Shown here: one piece after another, positions 33,921 to 45,874 of the stretch | Layout: every line of letters begins with the position of its first letter | Numbering within the stretch: the first letter of the stretch is position 1 | Source: a virus | Lineage: Duplodnaviria > Caudoviricetes | Length of the DNA stretch: 64,000 nt | Strand: one strand, 5' to 3' | Virus record (IMG/VR): IMGVR_UViG_3300044695_006401 | Notes under the pieces: model-generated | Database searches by the model: none | What the model was told of the DNA's origin: nothing | The model's input: the letters and a program-made list of their open reading frames with translations, nothing else | Made by a program: the position numbers and the translations under genes

Positions 33921-34640
33921 TTACAATGAAGGGTCCCCTAATAATTCATTTGTTAGATCTATATACTTAGAATCAATCTCTATCCCTATAAAATCTCTAT
34001 TATTATTTCGAGCCACAATTGCTGAGGTTCCTGATCCTAAGAACGGATCTAAACATAAATCATTCTCTTCTGTCGTTAACAACATACATGTCTCTACTAA
34101 CTTCTTTGGGAATGGTGCTGGATGTTTTGTATTCTTGTCAGGATTGATTATCCACACCTCAGACTGATACTCACTTGGTATCTGATCTTTGAATACCTTA
34201 GGTTTACCCTTTGTTAACCAATAGATATGTTCTGTACACGGCAACAATAGATCCTTTCTAATGTTAGGACTTGACAGACGATTCCATATAATTAATTGAT
34301 ATACATTTAAGTCCGACTTGGAGATAAAGTCTGTAGGAAGATGCAACTTGTTCTTATGTCTTCTCGCTTTATGATTGAAGAATATTGATCCATCAGGTTT
34401 AATGATTCTCTTCATCTCATTTAATACATCGATCATCCAGTTATGGTAATCAACCTCACTTAGATCATCCCCATATGAATCATAGTCAATATTAAATTTC
34501 TTCCATACTTGATTGCCAGGTTTTACCTTACCGATCAATCCTTTCTTGTTATACGGAGGACTTGTAACTATACACGCAATTGAGTCTGATGGGATCTTTC
34601 TCATCTCGTCAATACAATCCCCCATTCTTAAATCTATCAT
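33921..34640 (-). CDS. Site-specific DNA methyltransferase (N4-C/N6-A, beta class)
   Basis: GDC...VTSPPY, HPAPFP..LV, LDPFLGSGTS, FIGIEI. Confidence 0.93.
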   Translation of the reverse strand: MIDLRMGDCIDEMRKIPSDSIACIVTSPPYNKKGLIGKVKPGNQVWKKFNIDYDSYGDDLSEVDYHNWMIDVLNEMKRIIKPDGSIFFNHKARRHKNKLHLPTDFISKSDLNVYQLIIWNRLSSPNIRKDLLLPCTEHIYWLTKGKPKVFKDQIPSEYQSEVWIINPDKNTKHPAPFPKKLVETCMLLTTEENDLCLDPFLGSGTSAIVARNNNRDFIGIEIDSKYIDLTNELLGDPSL

Positions 34641-34652
34641 ACTTAAATATAA

Positions 34653-35402
34653 TTATTTTCTCTCAGAAATCAATTCCTTGATCTTCTCATAATTGTGATG
34701 AAATTGTAGACCTCCCTGATGAAATTGTAGGTGACCAAATGGTAACTGAATGGTTGTTCCTCCATTCTTTGTTCCATATATAACATCACGCCCTTTTGAT
34801 TTCTCAATGATCTCGTTGATGTCAAATTTCTCATTAACTTGGTTGTCACCGAGTTTGTTAACATACCATAAGATGTCAACCCAATCACCTTCATTTTTGC
34901 TCCATCCCTTCTTAAAAACCAACTCCGTGATGTTGTGTAAGTTGTCCTTGAACCATAACTTAAACTCATTTGAGAGATCCTCATTATATTTGATCAAAGT
35001 CTCAGTGGTGATGGTCTTTCTTCTAACTTCAGTTGCTCTAACCTTAGGATTCTGATGTATGCAATCCTCACAAGATAAAACCTCATCAATGATATCACTA
35101 CCACCAAACAATAATAAAAACACCTTTGATACATTTGACGGAATCTCACCATACATGATCGTATAACCATCTAAGAAACGACCAACCTTATTCATGTGAA
35201 CCTGACCACTTAATGATTTTTTTAGACTATGTCTTTTTACACCATAAATGTCTGGCTTAGGAGTTGTTTTGTCACCGAAGATAGATTCTACCTTACCAGC
35301 AAGAGTGTAGTATCCATCACCCAACTCTTCGCTGACTAACGATTCATTCTTGTGCCCGCTTAATTTGGCGTATGTCCATCCTTGACTTCGGTTCCTTTTC
35401 AT
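34653..35402 (-). CDS. Putative type II restriction endonuclease (PD-(D/E)xK variant)
   Basis: AKLSGHKNE...KPDI...HSLKK...GQVH; directly upstream of the MTase. Confidence 0.6.
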   Translation of the reverse strand: MKRNRSQGWTYAKLSGHKNESLVSEELGDGYYTLAGKVESIFGDKTTPKPDIYGVKRHSLKKSLSGQVHMNKVGRFLDGYTIMYGEIPSNVSKVFLLLFGGSDIIDEVLSCEDCIHQNPKVRATEVRRKTITTETLIKYNEDLSNEFKLWFKDNLHNITELVFKKGWSKNEGDWVDILWYVNKLGDNQVNEKFDINEIIEKSKGRDVIYGTKNGGTTIQLPFGHLQFHQGGLQFHHNYEKIKELISERK

Positions 35403-35889: not shown

Positions 35890-36142
35890 GTCTTGACTTT
35901 GATAGTTTTGCAAAATTTGGTTTGACATAAACAAATACCGTATACTCCACATCTGATGGTAGAAATGTTTTTAGTTTGTTCCTTATTCTTTCTGTCATAT
36001 GCATTTGTTTAAATGCCAATGTATCTATAGATGTCACTTTGGTTGAATCTATTTCACTATTGACATGATACACCCCTTCCACAAGTGTTACTTTTACTTG
36101 TGGTTCATCAAGTACTGAAATAATATATTGTTCTAAACCCAT
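35873..36142 (-). CDS. Small hypothetical protein
   Basis: Likely start MGLEQYI. Confidence 0.65.
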   Translation of the reverse strand: MGLEQYIISVLDEPQVKVTLVEGVYHVNSEIDSTKVTSIDTLAFKQMHMTERIRNKLKTFLPSDVEYTVFVYVKPNFAKLSKSRHERPR

Positions 36143-36417
36143 AATGATGTGGTTGGATAAATGGTTTGATATGTGATACGACAATCGTCTAGTGTTAAAT
36201 TAAAATACTTTTTTAATTGATGGTAAAGTCCATACCTATCTATTCCTTTATTGATTGTGTTATATAATCCGTCGTGTTCATCTAAGTATACTAATATATG
36301 TATACTGTAGAAATAAGGTTTTTTACCGTTTGTTTGAACTTGGACGGTAATATCATCCCTGTGTGAGAGGTGATCATATACAAATGAAATAAGTGCGTTT
36401 GATAAGTCCTTTACCAT
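36133..36417 (-). CDS. Early protein, paralog of 37609-37875
   Basis: MVKDLS...HLSHRDDI.VQV...DGLY.TINKGIDR; TATATTTG at 36425-36432. Confidence 0.8.
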   Translation of the reverse strand: MVKDLSNALISFVYDHLSHRDDITVQVQTNGKKPYFYSIHILVYLDEHDGLYNTINKGIDRYGLYHQLKKYFNLTLDDCRITYQTIYPTTSLWV

Positions 36418-36450: not shown

Positions 36451-36870
36451 TTACATATAATCCAAATAATCATCGTTGATTTGTGACATTTCATCAACTA
36501 AACTGAAAATTTCCTCATCAGATAAAACTGAAAGTCTTTCGAAACTTCCAGCAACTACTCTACCTATTGAATCTACTTCATTTACTCCTATTGTAACTAC
36601 ACCATAAGATAAATAAAATGAATCTACTATTTTATTTGGTGATATTTGTATAGATAGATCCCAACCTATTTCATCTTTTTCTAAAAAGTCTTTTATGTAT
36701 CTCTCAAAGACTTCTCTTGGTAGTTCTCCTGTCTTTGTATAGATTTGTGGAAGAGATAGTCCTGTCATCTTCATAAATTCATATAAACCATGTTGGTTTA
36801 AGAGTGTAAGTAATGATTGTTTTTGACTCTCTTCTCTGAGTACTTTTCTTATGTTTTCTTGTAGTTTCAT
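36451..36870 (-). CDS. Leader-bearing protein homologous to the C-terminal module of the 904-aa protein
   Basis: MKLQENIRKVLREE; QSLLTLLNQHGLYEFMKMTGL vs QSLQKLIDQHGLYDFIKMTGL. Confidence 0.8.
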   Translation of the reverse strand: MKLQENIRKVLREESQKQSLLTLLNQHGLYEFMKMTGLSLPQIYTKTGELPREVFERYIKDFLEKDEIGWDLSIQISPNKIVDSFYLSYGVVTIGVNEVDSIGRVVAGSFERLSVLSDEEIFSLVDEMSQINDDYLDYM

Positions 36871-37301
36871 TACTTTTTCTTCTTCACACAATTGGGATAA
36901 CGTTTACCAAACATAGTCTTCATACCTTTTTGAGTATATCCTTTCCAACATCTTTCTGTTAGTTCACCCTCTTTCATTTCTTGTTGACTTCTTCCTTTTT
37001 TATAATTTTGACAGTCCTGACCATCTGAAACGGAAACATATATTGCTTTTAACGGGATATAATTATTAAGATATTCTTGAAGTTCCTCACGATAAGATGA
37101 CTTAAGTTGTTCTTCAACTATCAAAATAACTAAATATTGGTCTTCAAAAGATTCTAACGCACTAACAACTAATGTACATATATTAAAATTAACATAATCA
37201 AGGATAAGATTTTTAATTAACTTTGAATACTTGTCATCAGAAATTTTATAATATGTCTCTTCCTTTAGTATCTTTCTTATATGTTCTTGTAGGTTCATCA
37301 T
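36870..37301 (-). CDS. Leader-bearing protein with C-terminal CWKGY...PNCV micro-domain
   Basis: MNLQEHIRKILKEE; LTERCWKGYTQKGMKTMFGKRYPNCVKKKK. Confidence 0.8.
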   Translation of the reverse strand: MMNLQEHIRKILKEETYYKISDDKYSKLIKNLILDYVNFNICTLVVSALESFEDQYLVILIVEEQLKSSYREELQEYLNNYIPLKAIYVSVSDGQDCQNYKKGRSQQEMKEGELTERCWKGYTQKGMKTMFGKRYPNCVKKKK

Positions 37302-37597
37302 AACTTTTCTTTTACATAATCCACCAATGGCTTCTCAAACATAATATATGAATCCCAATATTCTTGTTCAGACGAACTAAGAAATCTAAAATTCTTACTG
37401 GATGCAATAAATTGTCTTACGGTATCGTATATTGCGTCGGTTCTATCATAACCCGAATCAATTAAACCTTTCACATCATCAACCAAGTCATCTAATTTTT
37501 CTATTGTCACCCTTCTTATAATGTATGTCGGTAGATGAGACTCATTAATAACCCCCATCATTGATTTCATTCTTGATATTTGTTCTTGTAGGTTCAT
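37298..37597 (-). CDS. Leader-bearing small protein
   Basis: MNLQEQISRMKSMMGVINE. Confidence 0.8.
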   Translation of the reverse strand: MNLQEQISRMKSMMGVINESHLPTYIIRRVTIEKLDDLVDDVKGLIDSGYDRTDAIYDTVRQFIASSKNFRFLSSSEQEYWDSYIMFEKPLVDYVKEKL

Positions 37598-37608
37598 AAT
37601 AATAAATA

Positions 37609-37875
37609 TTACTCAGTTTGGTATTCGCTAACTTGAGTGTAAATCATACAACTATCCCAATCCAAATTAAAATACCCTTTAATTCCATTCATTAAATCAC
37701 CTCTGTCGATACCTTTGTTGATTGTGGCATAAAGTCCGTCGGTTGGTTTTACATATATAACTATGTGGACTTTATATCTTGTTGGTGATTTTACTACTTG
37801 CACCAAAATATCATCTCTGTGTGATAGATGAGTATATACATATTGTTCTATTACTTTTGATAAATCTTTTACCAT
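37609..37875 (-). CDS. Early protein, paralog of 36133-36417
   Basis: Shared motifs; TATATTTG at 37884-37891. Confidence 0.8.
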   Translation of the reverse strand: MVKDLSKVIEQYVYTHLSHRDDILVQVVKSPTRYKVHIVIYVKPTDGLYATINKGIDRGDLMNGIKGYFNLDWDSCMIYTQVSEYQTE

Positions 37876-37905: not shown

Positions 37906-40620
37906 CTAATCCCAATAACCACCTTCTATTACTTCCATCATCCAAGAAAGAATTGATAGTAACTCGTCATTAGTTAGGGTAATAATTGATGTTAGATATT
38001 GGTCTTTTTGTTCTCTATGTCCATATTCATCAAGATGATACTCCCATATCTCAACAGCACTTTGACCACTGTCTTGTACTAATATATCGTTAACATACTT
38101 AGTATCACTCAATGGTAAATTTAACGCAAAAAGTGAACCATAATTGTCACCACTCATCCCATCATGTTCTAAAACAAATTCTCTTATATATTGTTTTAAT
38201 ATTTCTTTGGGGTTATCTACTTTACTTAATAATGTTTTTACTTGATTAAAGTCTAACCCTGTCATCTTTATGAAATCATATAAACCGTGTTGGTCTATAA
38301 GTTTTTGTAATGATTGTTCTTTATTATCAGATTCATTTATATTTTTGTCCCACCATCTTTTCTCACCACATTTTGGTGTTGAGTATGAACCAACATAGAA
38401 ATTATCTATTGGGATGTAACCTTTGATTGTTTCTTTAATATCAAGTCTTATTTTTTTAACATAATGGTTTCTTCCTACCTCAGCAAAAAACTTCTCTTTA
38501 AGGTCAAATAAACCAATCTCAACATCAATTAAATACATATCGTCTTCTTCATTATACAAAACTCTAATATCACAAACACAATCTTCATTTTTAAATGGTT
38601 CCACAATATCTTTGATGATGTCTAAATACTTTGGTTGTTTTTCTTCTGACTCGTTTATCTCATTTCCGTCATCGTCATATTCAATTTTTTCAACATCAAT
38701 AAAAAAGTCAGCGTTCTTTCTTTTATAGTGCCATACTGGTGCCCACCATGAACATAAAATAATATTTCCACCTGTCATTTCATCAATCTTATCTTCTATA
38801 ACTTCTTCAAACCAACTGTCGTAGTTTGCTGCAGTATCATCTACATCGTGATAGATTTTAATTAAAGGTTTTCCGTATATTTCATCAATTTCAATATATT
38901 CAACCTCATCAAATAACTGAAGAATCATTTGTTTAACCAAATCAAGTTTTTTATCTTCTGATTCCATTAAATCATTCTTTAATGAATCTTCCCTTAATAT
39001 ACTTCTTATGGATTCTTGTAATCTATTAGGTGAATCTTCAGGCCACGAATTTAAAACATCTTCACTACTTCCTGTTCCTTCATATTTTAGGGTTATCGCC
39101 TCTTTTGGAATATCTTGAAATGTTACAATATGTTTTGACCTTGACTCAAAATGTCTATCTTTAAACCATTTAACATAAGGAATCATTGTTGTGTCAATAA
39201 ACCAAATATCATCGTCGTATGTTGAATCAAACCATGCTCTTTTGTTTGTTGAGTTGGTTGCAAAAATTGCTGGTTTACATTTAACCCCATAACCTACATA
39301 TACTTTATAACATTCTCCCGCTCTTACTTTAAGACCGTTTTCCATTATCTTATCTCTGTACATTGGATTGGACTTATGGACAACAATATGATTGGGTGTT
39401 ATTTCTTTACCCGCAGGACTATAATCTTTGTCTTCTGATTCACTTTCTCTCAGATAGATATTTTCTTTATCTTCACACTTTGGTGTTTGTAACATATCAA
39501 CATAAATTACTACTCCTGTATAGGTTGCAATTTCTTTTGTAATGGCATCTAAGACCTCATTATACATGTTTCTTACAGCTTGGGTCACTGGCCAATATTC
39601 TGTTCCGTAACCTCCAATAAATAAAACTGTAACTTGAGGTATATTGAAAAAATCTTCATTTAATGTGATTTCATAAGAACAAATAAGATGACCATATTCA
39701 GGAAGTATCATATCTTCCATTATCATTTTTATTATTTTGAAAAGTCTTTGTGTGTCCTTTTCATTTCTGTTTGAACTCTCGTTCATGAACTTAACCTCAT
39801 CGTCACAACTATCCACATACCACGGTGTGTAGATATACACTTTGATTCCCATAGACTTTATTGAGTCCTCTAAAGAATTAAGTTCTTTTTCTATTTCAGT
39901 AATTGAGGTCGCCAAATCATCTGTTGAGAGAGTTTTTGATCGTATTTCATATTCTTTATCATCAGGATTATATTCTGCCCATATATCACAAAGCCCGTCC
40001 CAACTAACTAAAGATAACAATACATTTATTGCCCTTAGATTTTTGTCAGTTTCACGATTATCACTTTCGTTTAAACTTTCAGACTCACCATAAAGTTTGT
40101 TGTGTATTCTTTTCACATCTTCTTTTGAAAAAGGGAATTCTTCATCATGTATATCGACATCTTTGCCGTTTATTTGTCTAACATCAAAATAACCAGAACT
40201 TTTAATTTCAGGTAAGTTGGTTTCTATCTTTCCTACAGTATTGTCATTTTGAATTGTGGCAAGGATGGTTATTAGTTTCTTTTTTTCTGCTGAAGTTAAT
40301 TTACTGTCATCATAAATAAGATTTAATTCAGGCCAAGAATGTGTGCCCCATATATTTTTTTTAATACCAATTATTTCATATTCAATCGGGAATACAACAA
40401 ATCTAGGATCTCCCCAAGCGTCGTGATATTCGAAATCAACAACACCTGTTAATTGATTTAACATTTCAGAAAGTTCAAGGTCATCTTTGAAAATACTTTT
40501 AAGATTATCCAGTCCCCCAACCATTTCAGCAGCATCAAAGATATTATTATCTTCAATAAATTGTTTCATCTCTTGTTGGAGTCTATTTTCTTTTAAGATA
40601 TGTCTAATCAGTTCTTTCAT
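37906..40620 (-). CDS. 904-aa modular polyprotein-like protein containing an ART/KptA-like module
   Basis: MKELIRHILKE leader; junctions LNES, MNES, LRES, LQESIRSILRE, LMES, INES x2; modules match stand-alone neighbours. Confidence 0.8.
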   Translation of the reverse strand: MKELIRHILKENRLQQEMKQFIEDNNIFDAAEMVGGLDNLKSIFKDDLELSEMLNQLTGVVDFEYHDAWGDPRFVVFPIEYEIIGIKKNIWGTHSWPELNLIYDDSKLTSAEKKKLITILATIQNDNTVGKIETNLPEIKSSGYFDVRQINGKDVDIHDEEFPFSKEDVKRIHNKLYGESESLNESDNRETDKNLRAINVLLSLVSWDGLCDIWAEYNPDDKEYEIRSKTLSTDDLATSITEIEKELNSLEDSIKSMGIKVYIYTPWYVDSCDDEVKFMNESSNRNEKDTQRLFKIIKMIMEDMILPEYGHLICSYEITLNEDFFNIPQVTVLFIGGYGTEYWPVTQAVRNMYNEVLDAITKEIATYTGVVIYVDMLQTPKCEDKENIYLRESESEDKDYSPAGKEITPNHIVVHKSNPMYRDKIMENGLKVRAGECYKVYVGYGVKCKPAIFATNSTNKRAWFDSTYDDDIWFIDTTMIPYVKWFKDRHFESRSKHIVTFQDIPKEAITLKYEGTGSSEDVLNSWPEDSPNRLQESIRSILREDSLKNDLMESEDKKLDLVKQMILQLFDEVEYIEIDEIYGKPLIKIYHDVDDTAANYDSWFEEVIEDKIDEMTGGNIILCSWWAPVWHYKRKNADFFIDVEKIEYDDDGNEINESEEKQPKYLDIIKDIVEPFKNEDCVCDIRVLYNEEDDMYLIDVEIGLFDLKEKFFAEVGRNHYVKKIRLDIKETIKGYIPIDNFYVGSYSTPKCGEKRWWDKNINESDNKEQSLQKLIDQHGLYDFIKMTGLDFNQVKTLLSKVDNPKEILKQYIREFVLEHDGMSGDNYGSLFALNLPLSDTKYVNDILVQDSGQSAVEIWEYHLDEYGHREQKDQYLTSIITLTNDELLSILSWMMEVIEGGYWD

Positions 40621-41246
40621 TCTCCTTTTAATCTTCTGTATTCAGCACCATTAAGTTGTTCTAAATAAGTTTGTTCAATCCATCCTGGTAATCTTTCTTC
40701 CCACCACAATATATCGTTCATTTTATATTTTCCTGTTTTAAGAATATGTTCTATCATTTCTTCCTCAGTTACATCATCAGGTTTTGTTATCGGCGGAAAA
40801 CAAATATCACCGTCGTAATTAGTTATATAAAGTTCGGAAATGTAGATATCATTTCTACCCATCTTTTTTTGAATTTCACCTAAATAAGTATCATCAAACC
40901 ATTCTTCAAGTAGGTATCTTAAATAACTTACTCTCACAGGAATATCTGTGGATAAGTCATCAAATACATTTTTTGGAACACTCATTAAACCCCTATTAAA
41001 ACTCATTTCTTCAGTTTTTTTATTGTCGTCATCATTACCAAAATATAAAACAACATCCAATATTTCTCTTCCGTTTTTACAAAAATCAAAACTATGTGTT
41101 GATTCATAAGATTTTTTATGGTACATCTCAACACCATCAAAATAATCATTCAACCATCTGTAGATAAGTTGCTCTACCTTTGGTGTAGGTTTATCATATT
41201 TTCTACTAACCTCTTCTTTTAATATGTGTCTAATTAATTCTTTCAT
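40617..41246 (-). CDS. Leader-bearing hypothetical protein
   Basis: MKELIRHILKEE. Confidence 0.8.
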   Translation of the reverse strand: MKELIRHILKEEVSRKYDKPTPKVEQLIYRWLNDYFDGVEMYHKKSYESTHSFDFCKNGREILDVVLYFGNDDDNKKTEEMSFNRGLMSVPKNVFDDLSTDIPVRVSYLRYLLEEWFDDTYLGEIQKKMGRNDIYISELYITNYDGDICFPPITKPDDVTEEEMIEHILKTGKYKMNDILWWEERLPGWIEQTYLEQLNGAEYRRLKGE

Positions 41247-41569
41247 TACATTACTTCGTATAAAAACTTTTTAATAGTTCTAACAACTTTTTGTCTATAT
41301 GGGTCATTCTCGTTTGTGAAGATACTCATTGGTTCAGTAACATTGTTTTCAATAAGCATATTCAAAATACGTCTTACTTGTCTTTTTTTATTATCCCACA
41401 TAGATACACCATAATATTCATCACCTACCTTAAAATATATCTCTTTAAACTTACTTCCTCCTTCAATGTTAATCTCATTAATTTCATATCTTCTTCTTAG
41501 GAAGTTATAAACTTTTTGGTCAATCTCTTCAGATTCTTCTTTCAATATGTTTCTAATTAAATCTTTCAT
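41246..41569 (-). CDS. Leader-bearing small protein
   Basis: MKDLIRNILKEE. Confidence 0.8.
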   Translation of the reverse strand: MKDLIRNILKEESEEIDQKVYNFLRRRYEINEINIEGGSKFKEIYFKVGDEYYGVSMWDNKKRQVRRILNMLIENNVTEPMSIFTNENDPYRQKVVRTIKKFLYEVM

Positions 41570-41937
41570 CTGAACTTAAAATATTCAATATCTAATTGTT
41601 TAATATCACCCCAAGTATCTTTAATAACCATTTCTTTTGGTATCATATCATAGATGTCGTTTAATTGGTTTTTAAATACATTTTCACCTTTACCTACTAT
41701 CTCAAACTTCATTGGAAACTCAAGGTATTCCTTTAACGAGTGGTAAATAAGATTCAACTTTCCTTTGAGTGAGTCAATTAATGTTACATACTCAGGTTCG
41801 TTTTTGAGTATTTGTTTTAGGTTATCTAAACCACCAACAAACTTAGCGGCAACAAAAATATCCTCATCTTTAATTAGATCGAGGATGTCAGTCTGCACTT
41901 TAGACTCTCTTAAGATATGTCTAATTAGTTGTCTCAT
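41566..41937 (-). CDS. Leader-bearing chimeric protein
   Basis: MRQLIRHILRES; N-half like module 1 of the 904-aa protein (VGGLDNLK), C-end like 41921-42376 (MIP..M). Confidence 0.75.
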   Translation of the reverse strand: MRQLIRHILRESKVQTDILDLIKDEDIFVAAKFVGGLDNLKQILKNEPEYVTLIDSLKGKLNLIYHSLKEYLEFPMKFEIVGKGENVFKNQLNDIYDMIPKEMVIKDTWGDIKQLDIEYFKFR

Positions 41938-42376
41938 CAACAAAAGTAAAATTATCAATCATTGGTTCTTTATAATCATCTGAAAAACCACCATATCCTA
42001 TCATCTTCATATCTTCAGGGATATATTTATACATTTCTCGTAACTCTTCATTCATTTTTAAAGCCTCATCTACCCCTTCATTATCATATCTTCCCTTGAA
42101 TGGGGATAATGGTGTCACAAGGGCCTTATCTAAATAAAAAATTTTTTCATATCGGGGTTCTAAACCATAAAATTCTTTTACCATTTCATAGTCAACATAG
42201 AGGTTGATGTAAATTATCATCTTGTATGTTTCTAATTCATCTGACAATTCCCATCCTAATATAAATGGGTATTGTTGTTTTAGTGTATTAACTACAATAC
42301 CGATCCCTTTTAGAATTTTTGGTTCTTCAACTTCTTCAGTAAGAATTTGCTTTATTAAATTTCTATTAATCTTCAT
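41921..42376 (-). CDS. Leader-bearing hypothetical protein
   Basis: NLIKQILTEE; KGIGIVVNTLKQQYPFILGWEL. Confidence 0.8.
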   Translation of the reverse strand: MKINRNLIKQILTEEVEEPKILKGIGIVVNTLKQQYPFILGWELSDELETYKMIIYINLYVDYEMVKEFYGLEPRYEKIFYLDKALVTPLSPFKGRYDNEGVDEALKMNEELREMYKYIPEDMKMIGYGGFSDDYKEPMIDNFTFVDETTN

Positions 42377-42794
42377 CGTATTCTTCTTGTCTAAATGCGT
42401 ATGTCATTTTTAATATAAATTGGTTGTCGGAACTCCACTCACAACCAATAAAATACCACATCAAGTTATTATATTTACCCGTATTTCTACCAAAAGAACC
42501 ATTATCTTTAAATGAATATTTAAGTAAAACTTTATCTAATTCACCATCAATTCTACGCAATTGCTGAGTGAACTCAAAAAGGTCAGGATCTTCATTCCAA
42601 GATGTTATAATAATGTCTCCCGCAATTTCAGTATATCTTTCATCAAAAGTAATATTTTGAACTTCAACCCCGTTGATAATGTTTGTATCCACAATACTTT
42701 CTACGATATAGGGAACAGATTCAGCTGACTTGATAAATCTTTCTCTCAAACCTTCTGTTTCCTCATTTAATATATTTTTGATTAAATTTTTCAT
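42366..42794 (-). CDS. Leader-bearing protein, paralog of 43679-44113
   Basis: MKNLIKNILNEE; L.ERF...YIVES...I.FD.RY..I. Confidence 0.8.
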   Translation of the reverse strand: MKNLIKNILNEETEGLRERFIKSAESVPYIVESIVDTNIINGVEVQNITFDERYTEIAGDIIITSWNEDPDLFEFTQQLRRIDGELDKVLLKYSFKDNGSFGRNTGKYNNLMWYFIGCEWSSDNQFILKMTYAFRQEEYDED

Positions 42795-43402
42795 TTTACT
42801 TTTTTACCGTATTTGAAGAACTTTTGCTGTATATTGATCGTTCCTTTACATCCACCCGATAGTTTTACTCCATTAGAATCGAAACATTTTGGCATAGTTT
42901 TATTGAAGTAATATACCAATTTTGGTTCTCCTGAGTTAACTGAATGCATACCAGCTAATTGACCATCAACCGCAGATTCACCTCCACCAGCACTTCCTCT
43001 ACTATCAAACTGTTCGTAGGTATAACCATCATTACTTTTTCCGATTGTGACTTCCCAATTTACTGTTAATGTATTGGGATCAATATTTACGGTAACTTTT
43101 TTAATATCTACCGCGTTTAAACCTTTTGTGTTTTTATATTCTTTGATGCCATTCTGAACTTTTGTGTTGATTCTACCACCAAATCCATCCGATCTTCTGC
43201 TTTGAAATGAGTGTAATGCGTCGTATGCTCTTGGTTGACCTTCAGCTGAGTAACTTCCACTAATTACCTCATCAAGGTTATTTACAGCATTATTAATTTT
43301 TTTTGATGCATTATTTAGTCCCTTAAGAGCATAATTTTTTAACTCGTTTTGCTCAACTAAAGTTACATATTCTTTCAGTACTTGTCTTATTAAATTTTTC
43401 AT
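42791..43402 (-). CDS. Leader-bearing hypothetical protein
   Basis: MKNLIRQVLKE; TATTTAT upstream. Confidence 0.8.
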   Translation of the reverse strand: MKNLIRQVLKEYVTLVEQNELKNYALKGLNNASKKINNAVNNLDEVISGSYSAEGQPRAYDALHSFQSRRSDGFGGRINTKVQNGIKEYKNTKGLNAVDIKKVTVNIDPNTLTVNWEVTIGKSNDGYTYEQFDSRGSAGGGESAVDGQLAGMHSVNSGEPKLVYYFNKTMPKCFDSNGVKLSGGCKGTINIQQKFFKYGKKVK

Positions 43403-43428
43403 ATCTTTATAAATATATTATTAGATTA

Positions 43429-43679
43429 TTATAGTCCACATTTAGACTTAACCACATTAAAGTTTTGTAATATCTATGTAAATGTTAAAGTCCAATTGAT
43501 TAATTGGTGATTATCATTTGCACCTCCTGTTGCCGCACCAAATCCCACCCAATGATAAAAGGATAATCTTGTTTAAGTATTTTCATAGCAATATCAAGAC
43601 CTTTTTTGGATGTTTGGCTATATTCCTTTCTTTCAGGACCTTCATATTCTTTTAATATGTTTCTAATCAACTCTTTCAT
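43429..43679 (-). pseudogene. Chimeric relic: truncated leader-bearing gene (43500-43679) joined to lectin-like and LamG-tail fragments
   Basis: MKELIRNILKE...KQDYPFIIGWDL then stop at 59 aa; alternative frame reads WVGFGAATGGANDNHQLINWTLTFT* ILQNFNVVKSKCGL*. Confidence 0.6.
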
Positions 43680-44113
43680 TATGCGTCGTATTCATCTTGA
43701 TTTACCCAAAACTCTAATGTTAAAACAAATGATTCCTCACCACCTGCCTGCCATTTCATACCAATTGGCAAACAACCTAACATCCAATCATTATCAGACC
43801 CTCTTCTGATTAAACCACCGTTTTCTGTAAAAGTATATTGTTGATTAATTTTATAAACTTCATTTTCTATACTATCTGCATGTCGACCGATTGAACCAAA
43901 ATCGTGGTCCTCAAAGTATGATTTAACCGTAAGTTTTGCTCGAATTTGAATATACTTTGGGTCAAATTCAATTTCACTTATCTCTACAGAATCTATCTCA
44001 GAAGAAATATTACTTTCAAAAATATATTCGAGTTTTTGCATAGAGTTTCTAAACCTTTGTTCTAACTCACCATCTTGTTCTTCTTTCAATATGTTTTTGA
44101 TAATGTCTTTCAT
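43679..44113 (-). CDS. Leader-bearing protein, paralog of 42366-42794
   Basis: MKDIIKNILKEE. Confidence 0.8.
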   Translation of the reverse strand: MKDIIKNILKEEQDGELEQRFRNSMQKLEYIFESNISSEIDSVEISEIEFDPKYIQIRAKLTVKSYFEDHDFGSIGRHADSIENEVYKINQQYTFTENGGLIRRGSDNDWMLGCLPIGMKWQAGGEESFVLTLEFWVNQDEYDA

Positions 44114-44134: not shown

Positions 44135-45874
44135 TTATAAACCATACTTAGATTTATCCGCATTAAAGTTTTGTAGTACCTGTGAACCCGTTAATGCTGA
44201 GCTATACATTCTTACAACACCCATTCTACCATTCAACCATTGAGAAAATTGTCCTCCATTGAATGATCCAGCGTATAAAGGTGATGTTGTGTTTTTAATA
44301 CTTGTAAATGAATGAGAGTTACTTCCAACTAAACTACCATTTATATAAAGGGCTAATGAATTACTTGCAACGTTAGTCCATACACCCACAACTTGATACC
44401 AAGTATTAATAGTTAAACCTGTTGCTGGTGATGTAATTGATGTTGAACCATTACCTATTTCCATATACGTATTACCGTTGGAAATTGTTCTTATTCCATA
44501 TCCCCAATCGGCAGAGTTACCGCCATCAGTTTTTGCAATAAGGACTCTACTTGACCCTGCAATTACCGAATGGTTTACCCAAAACTCAATCGTCCAATCA
44601 CCACTACCTGGCTCGAGTAATGCATTGTCAGCAACACTAATCTGAGATGACGAACCGTTGTATGTGAAATAAGGGTTTGTAAATGTTATATTTGACATTG
44701 TACCATTTAACCCGTTACCCGATAAGTCATTTATTGTTGTACCCGCACCAGAATAACTTAACGAATTGCTTGGGTCAAAATGTAATACAAGATTACTTGT
44801 TACAGGAACTATTGGTGTCGCAGTTGGTGTCGCAGTTGGTGTCGCAGTTGGTGTAGATGTCGGTGTAGATGTCGGTGTTGGAGTTGGTTCAACAAATCTT
44901 GGAGCCAAATAATTGTATTGTTGTGTGATTTCTGAAAGACTTAATTGTCTGTTATAGAAATACATGTTGGCAACATGTCCAAAAGGTTGACCTGCCAGAT
45001 CATTATTCCCCCAACCCCAATGTGTTATTCCTCCAGCACCGAAAGCGATTGTACTTCCCACTTGTGAACCATTTATGTAGAATCTTTGAGATGCGTTAGT
45101 TCCAACTACCGCATACTGAACCCAAACGCCAGCTGAAGATGCAACATCATATCCTGAACTTTTGAAGGAAGTATCCCAATATCCTAAGGTATTAGTTCCA
45201 TTAGGGATGGTAATTGGTGTGTATTTTGGTGAGTTTGTGTAAAGTAATGTTCTAAATCCGGCAGTACTTGTTATTAATCTTGCCCAAGTAATATAAGTGT
45301 ATCCTGATGTTGGTAATGTTGGTCCAGTACCATTTACAACAACTCTGTTAGTTCCCGTAGTACAATCAAAACATTTTATACCGTTAAGAACTGTGTAAGT
45401 AGCGTTGGTTAATGTGTGATCATACCCACTCGTTATATCATAAACTGTAGATCCTGTCCCTGGATAACTTAAACTTGTATATGCATCTAATTGTATGATT
45501 AAACCTAAGGTATTAATACCTGAGTATGATGTCCAATAACCATTATCGTTTAACCACTCTTTGGCAATTGCGGGATCTGTGAATGTTTGTGAATATGATT
45601 TATTAACTAACGCTAAAAAACTATTGTCGTTTTTTAAAACACTCCTTTTGAATCCTAAATACGCATTAACAAACTCAGGGTTAGGTTGATTTCCTTGTGT
45701 GTTCGGGTAAGCAACAACATAACCTAAATCTTCATCAGGGCCGTTCCACCATCTTACACCACCTACACCTCCAACATAATCTATATTATCAACACCTATA
45801 GCTAAATTACCAATTTGTATTGTGCCCGATATTGTTGATCCTGTGTTATACGCAAAAGGTCTCGATGTTGCCAT
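44135..45874 (-). CDS. Two-LamG (ConA-like) domain protein with Pro/Thr linker; probable virion adhesin or fibre
   Basis: L..D...SY.G.G.T..D.S motifs twice; WVQYAV/WYQVVGV...LYING; PTPTPTSTPTSTPTATPTATP linker. Confidence 0.85.
   Translation of the reverse strand: MATSRPFAYNTGSTISGTIQIGNLAIGVDNIDYVGGVGGVRWWNGPDEDLGYVVAYPNTQGNQPNPEFVNAYLGFKRSVLKNDNSFLALVNKSYSQTFTDPAIAKEWLNDNGYWTSYSGINTLGLIIQLDAYTSLSYPGTGSTVYDITSGYDHTLTNATYTVLNGIKCFDCTTGTNRVVVNGTGPTLPTSGYTYITWARLITSTAGFRTLLYTNSPKYTPITIPNGTNTLGYWDTSFKSSGYDVASSAGVWVQYAVVGTNASQRFYINGSQVGSTIAFGAGGITHWGWGNNDLAGQPFGHVANMYFYNRQLSLSEITQQYNYLAPRFVEPTPTPTSTPTSTPTATPTATPTATPIVPVTSNLVLHFDPSNSLSYSGAGTTINDLSGNGLNGTMSNITFTNPYFTYNGSSSQISVADNALLEPGSGDWTIEFWVNHSVIAGSSRVLIAKTDGGNSADWGYGIRTISNGNTYMEIGNGSTSITSPATGLTINTWYQVVGVWTNVASNSLALYINGSLVGSNSHSFTSIKNTTSPLYAGSFNGGQFSQWLNGRMGVVRMYSSALTGSQVLQNFNADKSKYGL
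44815..44880. repeat. 12-bp coding tandem repeat (TPTA/TPTS linker)
   Basis: TGTCGCAGTTGG x3 then TGTAGATGTCGG x2. Confidence 0.8.

Follow-up and report, generated by a model that had tools for sequence, protein, structure and literature searches.

This study concerns a 904-amino-acid (aa) open reading frame (ORF P0001) carried on the minus strand, at positions 37906-40620, of a 64,000-nucleotide (nt) stretch of DNA from a tailed freshwater jumbo phage (Caudoviricetes; IMG/VR record IMGVR_UViG_3300044695_006401), which is referred to below as the window. Sequence comparisons strongly supported the view that the encoded protein is a fusion of independent leader-bearing cargo genes, exchanged as cassettes at their linkers. 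We further propose, with a probability of roughly 55%, that its product is a mosaic precursor from which internal or ejection proteins packaged in the head are derived, that the leader would target this precursor to the prohead core, and that an S77 protease would cut both the leader and every junction. The organization of the protein is given below; a slash marks the proposed cut after Glu, h stands for a hydrophobic residue ([ILVMF]) and x for any residue.

37906-40620, minus strand: putative precursor ORF P0001, 904 aa (about 105 kDa at full length); a single ORF with a leader, seven modules and one embedded leader copy
40588-40620, minus strand: aa 1-11, N-terminal leader MKELIRHILKE with a final L-K-E; candidate capsid-targeting or propeptide segment
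40066-40587, minus strand: module 1 (M1), aa 12-185; helices, then beta-sheet, then a disordered tail (aa 140-186) closing with SLNE/S
39778-40065, minus strand: module 2 (M2), aa 186-281; alpha-beta-beta-alpha-beta; closes with FMNE/S
39445-39777, minus strand: module 3 (M3), aa 282-392; alpha-beta-beta-alpha-beta; closes with YLRE/S
39025-39444, minus strand: module 4 (M4), aa 393-532; predicted ADP-ribosyltransferase (ART) fold, nearest to the NAD (nicotinamide adenine dinucleotide) lobe of Tpt1/KptA
38962-39024, minus strand: embedded leader copy, aa 533-553, RLQESIRSILRE...LME/S, with three h-x-E sites
38650-38961, minus strand: module 5 (M5), aa 554-657; alpha/beta domain; closes with INE/S
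38332-38649, minus strand: module 6 (M6), aa 658-763; alpha-beta-beta-alpha-beta; closes with INE/S
37906-38331, minus strand: module 7 (M7), aa 764-904 plus stop codon; helical half, then beta-sheet half

A first-pass annotation of the window had described this ORF as a chain of modules separated by x-x-E/S junctions, and all the junction strings were indeed found at their coordinates: SLNE/SD (where E185 ends at nt 40066), FMNE/SS at 39778, YLRE/SE at 39445, LME/SE at 38962, INE/SE at 38650 and INE/SD at 38332, together with the embedded leader string RLQE/SIRSILRE/D at 39013-38989. The modules number seven, in addition to one embedded leader copy. The two paralogues proposed in that annotation within the window were also recovered by BLAST, over early module portions only. 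The ORF at 41566-41937 matched M1 (residues 1-104, 39% identity, E 3e-23), an alignment that covers only the first 104 aa of the module, and the ORF at 36451-36870 (residues 8-66) matched the early part of M7 (residues 759-820, 40% identity, E 6e-14). In the latter alignment, the junction I-N-E/S of the 904-aa protein corresponded column by column to the leader L-R-E/E of the stand-alone ORF. The embedded leader (residues 533-553) resembled the N-terminal MNLQE-type leaders of ORFs 36451, 36870 and 33396.

The AlphaFold2 model of the 904-aa protein was built from 23 colinear relatives (set A2, which replaced A1, a misaligned 149-row MAFFT alignment of module fragments). It displayed a mean predicted local distance difference test score (pLDDT) of 64.5, the domains lying mostly between 70 and 85. 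Six of the six junctions corresponded to low-pLDDT coil between domains (residues 140-186, 276-285, 384-405, 529-531, 656-662 and 754-768), so that the junction motifs did not fall inside folded domains, and the embedded leader was predicted as two short helices. M2, M3, M5 and M6 shared a common alpha-beta-beta-alpha-beta layout, and hhalign linked M2 to M6 (93.8% probability) and M3 to M6 (91.5%); M1, M4 and M7 showed no confident hhalign link to any other module, the best being M1-M7 with 32.5%. Pfam (E <= 0.1) and PHROG (E <= 0.01) scans found no family for the 904-aa protein or for the genes of the small-ORF array lying upstream of it. Neither did these scans detect an embedded peptidase (MPTase or similar), and fold searches with the whole model displayed no protease-like fold. 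The latter searches returned generic repeated alpha/beta matches (eS7, NusA, BON) with template-modelling (TM) scores below 0.3, which were judged uninformative, and look-ups of M1 and M7 in the ESM Atlas gave no usable lead.

The string [ILM][NRM]ES[SDE] occurred six times in the 904-aa protein, against 0.03 in shuffled sequences, and the looser h-x-E-S seven times against 1.6 (P about 0.001). Each of the seven h-x-E-S occurrences fell either on one of the six junctions or within the embedded leader; the modules themselves had none. At the scale of the family, h-x-E-S was present within a 16-residue window at 74% of 198 internal module starts, compared to 8% of random windows, while within modules it was under-represented (20 observed, 33.7 +/- 5.7 in shuffles). 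Alignment of the junctions on the Glu (P1) displayed Leu (48%), Ile (32%) or Met (9%) at P3, Asn at P2 (55%) and Ser at P1' (80%). The junction Ser was encoded by both AGT and TCN, and the codons for Leu, Ile and Glu varied as well. The contrast between junction and random windows, the P1' and P2 biases, the mixed Ser codons and the depletion within modules indicate that the motif is selected at the protein level. Leader codons also varied synonymously, and leaders, like junctions, are conserved as protein according to this codon usage. The possibility that leaders act as nucleotide-level signals, for recombination or translation start, was ruled out by this synonymous variation and by the presence of intact copies within ORFs. 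Complete leader copies, some of them retaining their Met, were found at 13 of the 198 internal junctions; they resemble scars left where neighbouring leader-bearing genes lost the stop codon between them.

Leaders and junctions might instead serve another process: recognition by some other phage or host peptidase outside the capsid, by an unfoldase, export or ejection machinery, or use of N-x-S as a glycosylation sequon. This appears improbable. It is true that N-x-[ST] was found in 55% of junction windows versus 13% of random ones, but h-x-E-S accounts for 74% of junctions against 55% for the sequon, junctions such as LRE/S, LME/S, LNE/NY and ILRE/E are not sequons, and Asn reaches only 55% at P2. 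Moreover, the likeness to the L/I-X-E site of T4, the capsid-protein site and the enrichment in scaffold ORFs (see below) point to the head protease.

Single-ORF orthologues of 871-1018 aa, with 54-71% identity and the same gene neighbourhood, were present on eight independent IMG/VR contigs. Their alignment revealed gains and losses of whole modules, with indel borders located exactly at junctions. M2 was absent from L004 and L008, and M6 from L008; an additional module occurred between M5 and M6 in L002, L004, L007 and L008, the last of which carried two more. The embedded leader was lacking in L001, L002 and L004, and L007 displayed a further leader copy ahead of M4. Identity was also mosaic from module to module, L007 showing 33% in M3 versus 90% in the adjacent M4. 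In L009 and L010, M4 formed a separate gene in which the leader ran straight into the module, after which came an internal copy of a leader and a module of another kind. A distinct 251-aa ORF of L009 (5664-6419, plus strand) contained an internal leader copy in mid-protein, NIQESIRRILRE, and then a module with the GG-x-x-x-L-x-x-I motif of M1; internal leaders thus also occur outside the family to which the 904-aa protein belongs.

An exhaustive phmmer search retrieved 469 related proteins (E <= 1e-3), and module strings, neighbour pairs and solo occurrences were mapped on the best 150 of these (P0002-P0151), to which the following counts refer. The comparison of module order, suggested by the first-pass annotation, uncovered 68 distinct module strings, hence at least 68 orders in the family, and neighbouring modules formed 34 of the 49 ordered pairs that are possible. 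For every one of the seven modules, at least one protein was found in which the module follows an N-terminal leader of 10-13 aa without interruption, and the last L-x-E of the leader was in register with the h-N-E of the junctions. Examples are M5 behind leaders in P0071 and P0140, and stand-alone versions of M6 (P0138) and M7 (P0069). Half of the relatives contained more than 120 residues outside M1-M7, which implies that the module pool is larger than seven. Leaders MKELIRHILKE and MNLQE-x-IRRILRE were carried by many unrelated ORFs, in the window, in the related genome G001 (described below) and throughout the family. The proposal that independent cargo genes had been fused was thus borne out by three observations: modules lie behind leaders elsewhere, indels fall at junctions, and internal MNLQE starts persist as apparent scars.

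The stretch was recovered nearly letter for letter in at least 18 lake-water metagenomes from different studies, and no indels were observed in the metagenome contigs compared. In-frame joints were recorded in two lake metagenomes: one from 39764 to 40065, skipping 300 nt, i.e. M2; one from 38649 to 39778, skipping 1128 nt, i.e. M3 to M5; and one from 40608 to 41212, skipping 603 nt from leader to leader and dropping the upstream gene. Metagenome contigs further diverged at 38987 and 39020, which are both borders of the embedded leader. These joints are weak evidence since they stem from single low-depth contigs with short sides, but they agree with the indels among orthologues. Short pieces of the gene also occurred in two metatranscriptome runs, which is no proof of transcription. 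That the long ORF is an artefact, due to mis-assembly or to small genes joined by sequencing errors or decay, might be suspected from its source, a metagenome-derived viral contig on which the neighbouring genes are small and leader-bearing. This explanation is hardly credible, as one intact ORF was conserved on the eight independent contigs, the stretch recurred in the lake metagenomes without indels, and substitutions occurred at the protein level with junctions conserved.

The genome record of the window itself (G000) is a 78.6-kb fragment, 27% complete according to CheckV, and is devoid of the head-gene region; its low GC content (guanine plus cytosine) is about 31% in the window. Window and record displayed a net 3-base difference between window positions 1000 and 63900, and the window overruns the record by 32 bases at its end. 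Neither tblastn nor megablast gave any match among cultured phage genomes, and the phage has no close relative in culture. Jumbo phages of freshwater Bacteroidetes encoding bS21 have been published (PMC9723584). Head genes were examined in two relatives, G001 (272.6 kb, 93% complete), which carries orthologue L008, and G002 (195.5 kb). Both encoded a Peptidase_S77 protein of the T4 gp21 type (PF03420, 81-85 bits for a cut-off of 27; in G001 at L013:10047-10775, minus strand), and their head genes followed the T4 order: portal (PF07230), S77 protease and gp23-type capsid protein (PF07068). Among cultured genomes, the capsid protein matched only T4-like phages, at about 28% identity. It displayed the string FLINE/A, conserved in G001 and G002, twelve residues ahead of a conserved VRR segment that in T4 lies 27 residues into the mature form of gp23. 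FLINE/A may plausibly be where the capsid protein matures; like the junctions, it belongs to the h-N-E type.

Ranking the 321 ORFs of G001 by h-x-E-S density provided a further link to the head. The ORF at the scaffold position ranked first (7 versus 0.59 expected, P 3e-6), followed by the ORF between portal and protease (4 versus 0.28), a 70-aa ORF between protease and scaffold, and the orthologue of the 904-aa protein (5 versus 1.18). The motif thus marks expected protease substrates and then this orthologue. It was also enriched near the start of G001 ORFs, where 19 occurrences versus 6.3 expected fell within the first 20 residues.

This pattern recalls what is established for T4. The T4 gp21 protease cleaves after Glu in L/I-X-E (PMC9026906, PMC3012670), and internal proteins and Alt are loaded through N-terminal capsid-targeting sequences of 10-20 aa that gp21 later removes (PMC9026906, PMC5694885, PMC3012670). 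Such sequences of 10 aa load unrelated proteins (PMC9026906, PMC3012670), and the internal proteins of T-even phages are described as a diverse set with only the leader in common (PMC9026906, PMC5694885, PMC3012670). The related protease of SPN3US prefers Ser at P1' (PMC10052503). By analogy, the N-terminal leader of the 904-aa protein would dock the chain onto the prohead core, like a T4 capsid-targeting sequence, and a T4-type S77 (gp21-like) prohead protease would cut behind the Glu that ends the leader and behind that of each junction. Seven proteins of about 11-20 kDa would be released, one of them a predicted ART-fold enzyme; they would be retained in the head and injected along with the DNA, a single leader thereby loading seven cargoes in fixed proportion. 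Packaging via one leader was also put forward in the first-pass annotation; the 904-aa protein carries a second leader, the embedded one, which is missing from three orthologues. The case for cutting by the head protease, which the first-pass annotation had put forward, rests on the S77 protease in relatives, the likeness to the capsid site, the density in scaffold and core ORFs, the coil between domains and the depletion within modules. These elements are circumstantial, and the cleavage itself is a prediction.

Several observations weigh against such processing. The protease, capsid and scaffold genes were read in relatives, whose orthologue is 54% identical, and are located outside the 78.6-kb record of the window, and the G001 rank of the orthologue rests on a modest P (7e-3). 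Plain h-x-E is common within modules (33 occurrences in the 904-aa protein) and is not depleted there, L/I-x-E being a short motif, and P-values from shuffles are approximate since the family sequences are related. M2, M3 and M6 are paralogues, so that part of the junction similarity may be inherited rather than selected. The N-terminal leader and the start of M1 were predicted as one continuous helix (residues 2-24). Finally, M1 came first in 16 of 18 cases (it was internal in P0124 and P0129), and M7 never preceded another module and was always last, which hints at position-dependent roles within an intact chain. A picture of purely independent cargoes leaves these two fixed ends unexplained; the other five modules occurred in almost any order.

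The last three of these points (paralogy, continuous helix and fixed ends) would be expected of an uncleaved multidomain polyvalent protein, working as an intact chain in the virion or the cell, with h-N-E-S as an inherited linker and the leader as a retained structural or docking helix. Polyvalent phage proteins with 2-15 domains are indeed known, some of them delivered whole (PMC5512222). Yet the junctions lack the richness in Gly, Pro, Ser and Thr usual for passive linkers, such a composition being found in only 1% of junction windows, and hydrophobic P3, Glu P1 and Ser P1' are kept across unrelated modules. The motif is densest in scaffold and core ORFs near the protease gene and depleted within modules, each module also exists as a stand-alone leader-bearing gene, and module order is nearly free. 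On balance, an uncleaved chain was considered unlikely, albeit the main rival to the processed precursor.

If the precursor is processed, a general cargo grammar may be envisaged for T4-related freshwater jumbo phages, in which either a leader or an h-x-E-S junction would suffice for capsid loading and release by the protease, effector modules, ART-fold enzymes among them, being strung and reshuffled into polyproteins of arbitrary order. This extension is advanced tentatively, at somewhat less than even odds.

The searches assigned no function to the modules other than M4. Modelled alone with AlphaFold2 (63 homologues), M4 reached a pLDDT of 82.6 and a predicted TM score (pTM) of 0.77. Foldseek retrieved KptA/Tpt1 (9ldi; E 5.8e-5, probability 1.0, TM 0.50), and in VIA-align the NAD lobes of KptA and mouse Tpt1 obtained Z-scores of 9.9 (root-mean-square deviation 2.5 A over 89 aa) and 9.4, followed by Scabin, Rhs ART toxins and DarT, ARTs being found throughout the list. 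Matches in the AlphaFold DB were DarT/DUF4433 and RNA 2'-phosphotransferases. In these models M4 has the split beta-sheet fold of ARTs, and it resembles Tpt1/KptA and DarT in the ART fold of the NAD-binding lobe. It aligned to the C-terminal (NAD) lobe alone (9ld3_A, residues ~86-180): with its 140 aa bounded by junctions, it differs from Tpt1/KptA by the missing N-terminal nucleic-acid (RNA-binding) lobe, and also by the lack of a sequence-level match, none being found by the Pfam scan or by a profile search against PDB sequences. Residues invariant in the alignment of 63 sequences, in which catalytic or NAD-binding residues of the H-Y-E or R-S-E type were looked for, included His23, Ser25, Arg30, Tyr46, Phe61 and Asp79. 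T4 Alt is an ART that is packaged in the head and cut by gp21 (PMC5512222), and by this analogy M4 is a plausible head cargo.

Comparison with T4 revealed both shared and distinctive traits. As in T4 IPI-III and Alt, short leaders (about 10 aa) ending in L/I-x-E precede unrelated, fast-evolving accessory proteins, and the relatives likewise possess S77 protease, portal and gp23-type capsid genes, with a predicted ART-fold enzyme among the cargo. Leader length (10-13 aa here) is similar to that of the T4 capsid-targeting sequence (PMC9026906, PMC5694885). The leaders are nevertheless not related in sequence to the latter, and leader-bearing genes number dozens here versus about four in T4. T4 cargoes are single-body proteins, whereas up to seven or more bodies are here chained by cleavage-type junctions and shuffled combinatorially; packaging and processing, known for the T4 internal proteins, are predicted here. 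T4 Alt belongs to the R-S-E clade of ARTs; M4, in contrast, groups with Tpt1/DarT-like ARTs.

The first-pass annotation had considered a polyprotein strategy unusual for tailed phages. As a concept this was overstated, given the precedents of polyvalent proteins (PMC5512222), of T4 Alt and internal proteins, and of multiply cleaved head proteins in giant phages. Polyvalent proteins are predicted to be packaged and injected, Iyer et al. 2017 having drawn the analogy to RNA-virus polyproteins, and their release was proposed to occur via an embedded zincin-like MPTase peptidase (PMC5512222). The protein studied here resembles them in assembling unrelated small domains, including ARTs, in one polypeptide, with variable orders and solo versions. 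Unlike them, it displayed no embedded peptidase or Pfam domain, carries an N-terminal leader and predicted sites for a separate prohead protease, and is composed of modules outside the catalogued polyvalent domain families. In giant phages, head and ejection proteins (phiKZ gp175, SPN3US gp245, 201phi2-1) are cut after Glu by a gp21-related protease, at several sites per substrate (PMC10052503, PMC9026906). Many head proteins are concerned, the motif is a three-residue Glu motif as it is here, and SPN3US shares the Ser at P1'. Yet the giant-phage motif is A/S-X-E instead of h-X-E, and the repeated cuts there break down long N-terminal propeptides, so that a single mature body remains, whereas the pieces predicted here are folded, independently occurring modules. 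The system thus differs from those of T4 and the polyvalent proteins in the absence of an embedded peptidase, the predicted head-protease sites, the near-free order and the alternation of modules between stand-alone and chained forms. A literature search on the leader strings found no description of these leaders or modules.

Two further groups of leader-bearing genes surround the 904-aa ORF, which overlaps the last gene of the upstream array by 4 nt.

40617-44113, minus strand: upstream array; eight small ORFs in close succession, of which seven carry an MK-x-LIR-x-ILKE leader, ORF 41921-42376 having only a leader-like variant
36451-37597, minus strand: downstream set of three ORFs with an MNLQE-type leader, including the M7 paralogue

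Apart from their leaders, the leader-bearing ORFs of the array were unrelated to each other. The motif TATTTAT precedes the genes starting at 44113 and 43402, and was also found in the window upstream of 37597, 33884 and 33203. In G001 it occurred at most 40 nt upstream of 97 of the 321 ORFs, among which were scaffold, protease, portal, terminase, many leader-bearing genes and the first gene of the cargo operon. Its total in G001 (302) was not above the expectation from composition, indicating that the motif stands out by its placement and not by its frequency. Its character is promoter-like, and it is compatible with co-expression of head and cargo genes, without being specific to it.

Other neighbours were recorded in the window, all on the minus strand. 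Within the leader-gene region, two leaderless ORFs occupy 33921-35402; read from their translations only, the 239-aa ORF displayed a TSPPY motif typical of N4/N6 DNA methyltransferases, and the 249-aa ORF beside it could be a partner nuclease. Leader-bearing ORF 36870-37301 ends with about 35 aa rich in Cys and Lys (CWKGY...PNCVKKKK), which showed similarity to the C-terminal ends of several function-unknown PHROGs (phrog_9737, E 1.7e-6) and a weak match to DUF7130; this tail appears to be a separate portable C-terminal tag. The three MNLQE-leader genes are flanked by paralogous small ORFs at 37609-37875 and 36133-36417 (88 and 94 aa), which start with MVKDLS and are devoid of the usual leader; similar ORFs follow the orthologue in L001-L008. 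The ORF directly upstream of the array (44135-45874) encodes 579 aa, in which a Laminin_G_3 (concanavalin-like) domain (2.2e-28) is accompanied by a long Pro-Thr linker; its product probably belongs to the fibres or to the surface.

Should the junctions be cut, a tailed phage would be using a true polyprotein to load many small effectors via one targeting signal, and a minimal junction of three or four residues would suffice to make modules freely exchangeable. The cargo grammar, if true, would provide the first case of a tailed phage in which the head protease divides a polyprotein into several proteins that are retained and injected, and an equivalent, among phages, of the cassette systems known for polymorphic toxins and effectors. 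Cutting at the junctions would also mean that virion cargo of uncultured phages could be predicted from sequence by a simple rule (leader or h-x-E-S), and would offer a natural design by which T4-type capsids might be filled with several foreign proteins. M4, with its ART fold, and the other six modules are candidate early host-takeover or anti-defence factors, and such a system would explain how jumbo phages diversify their injected arsenal.

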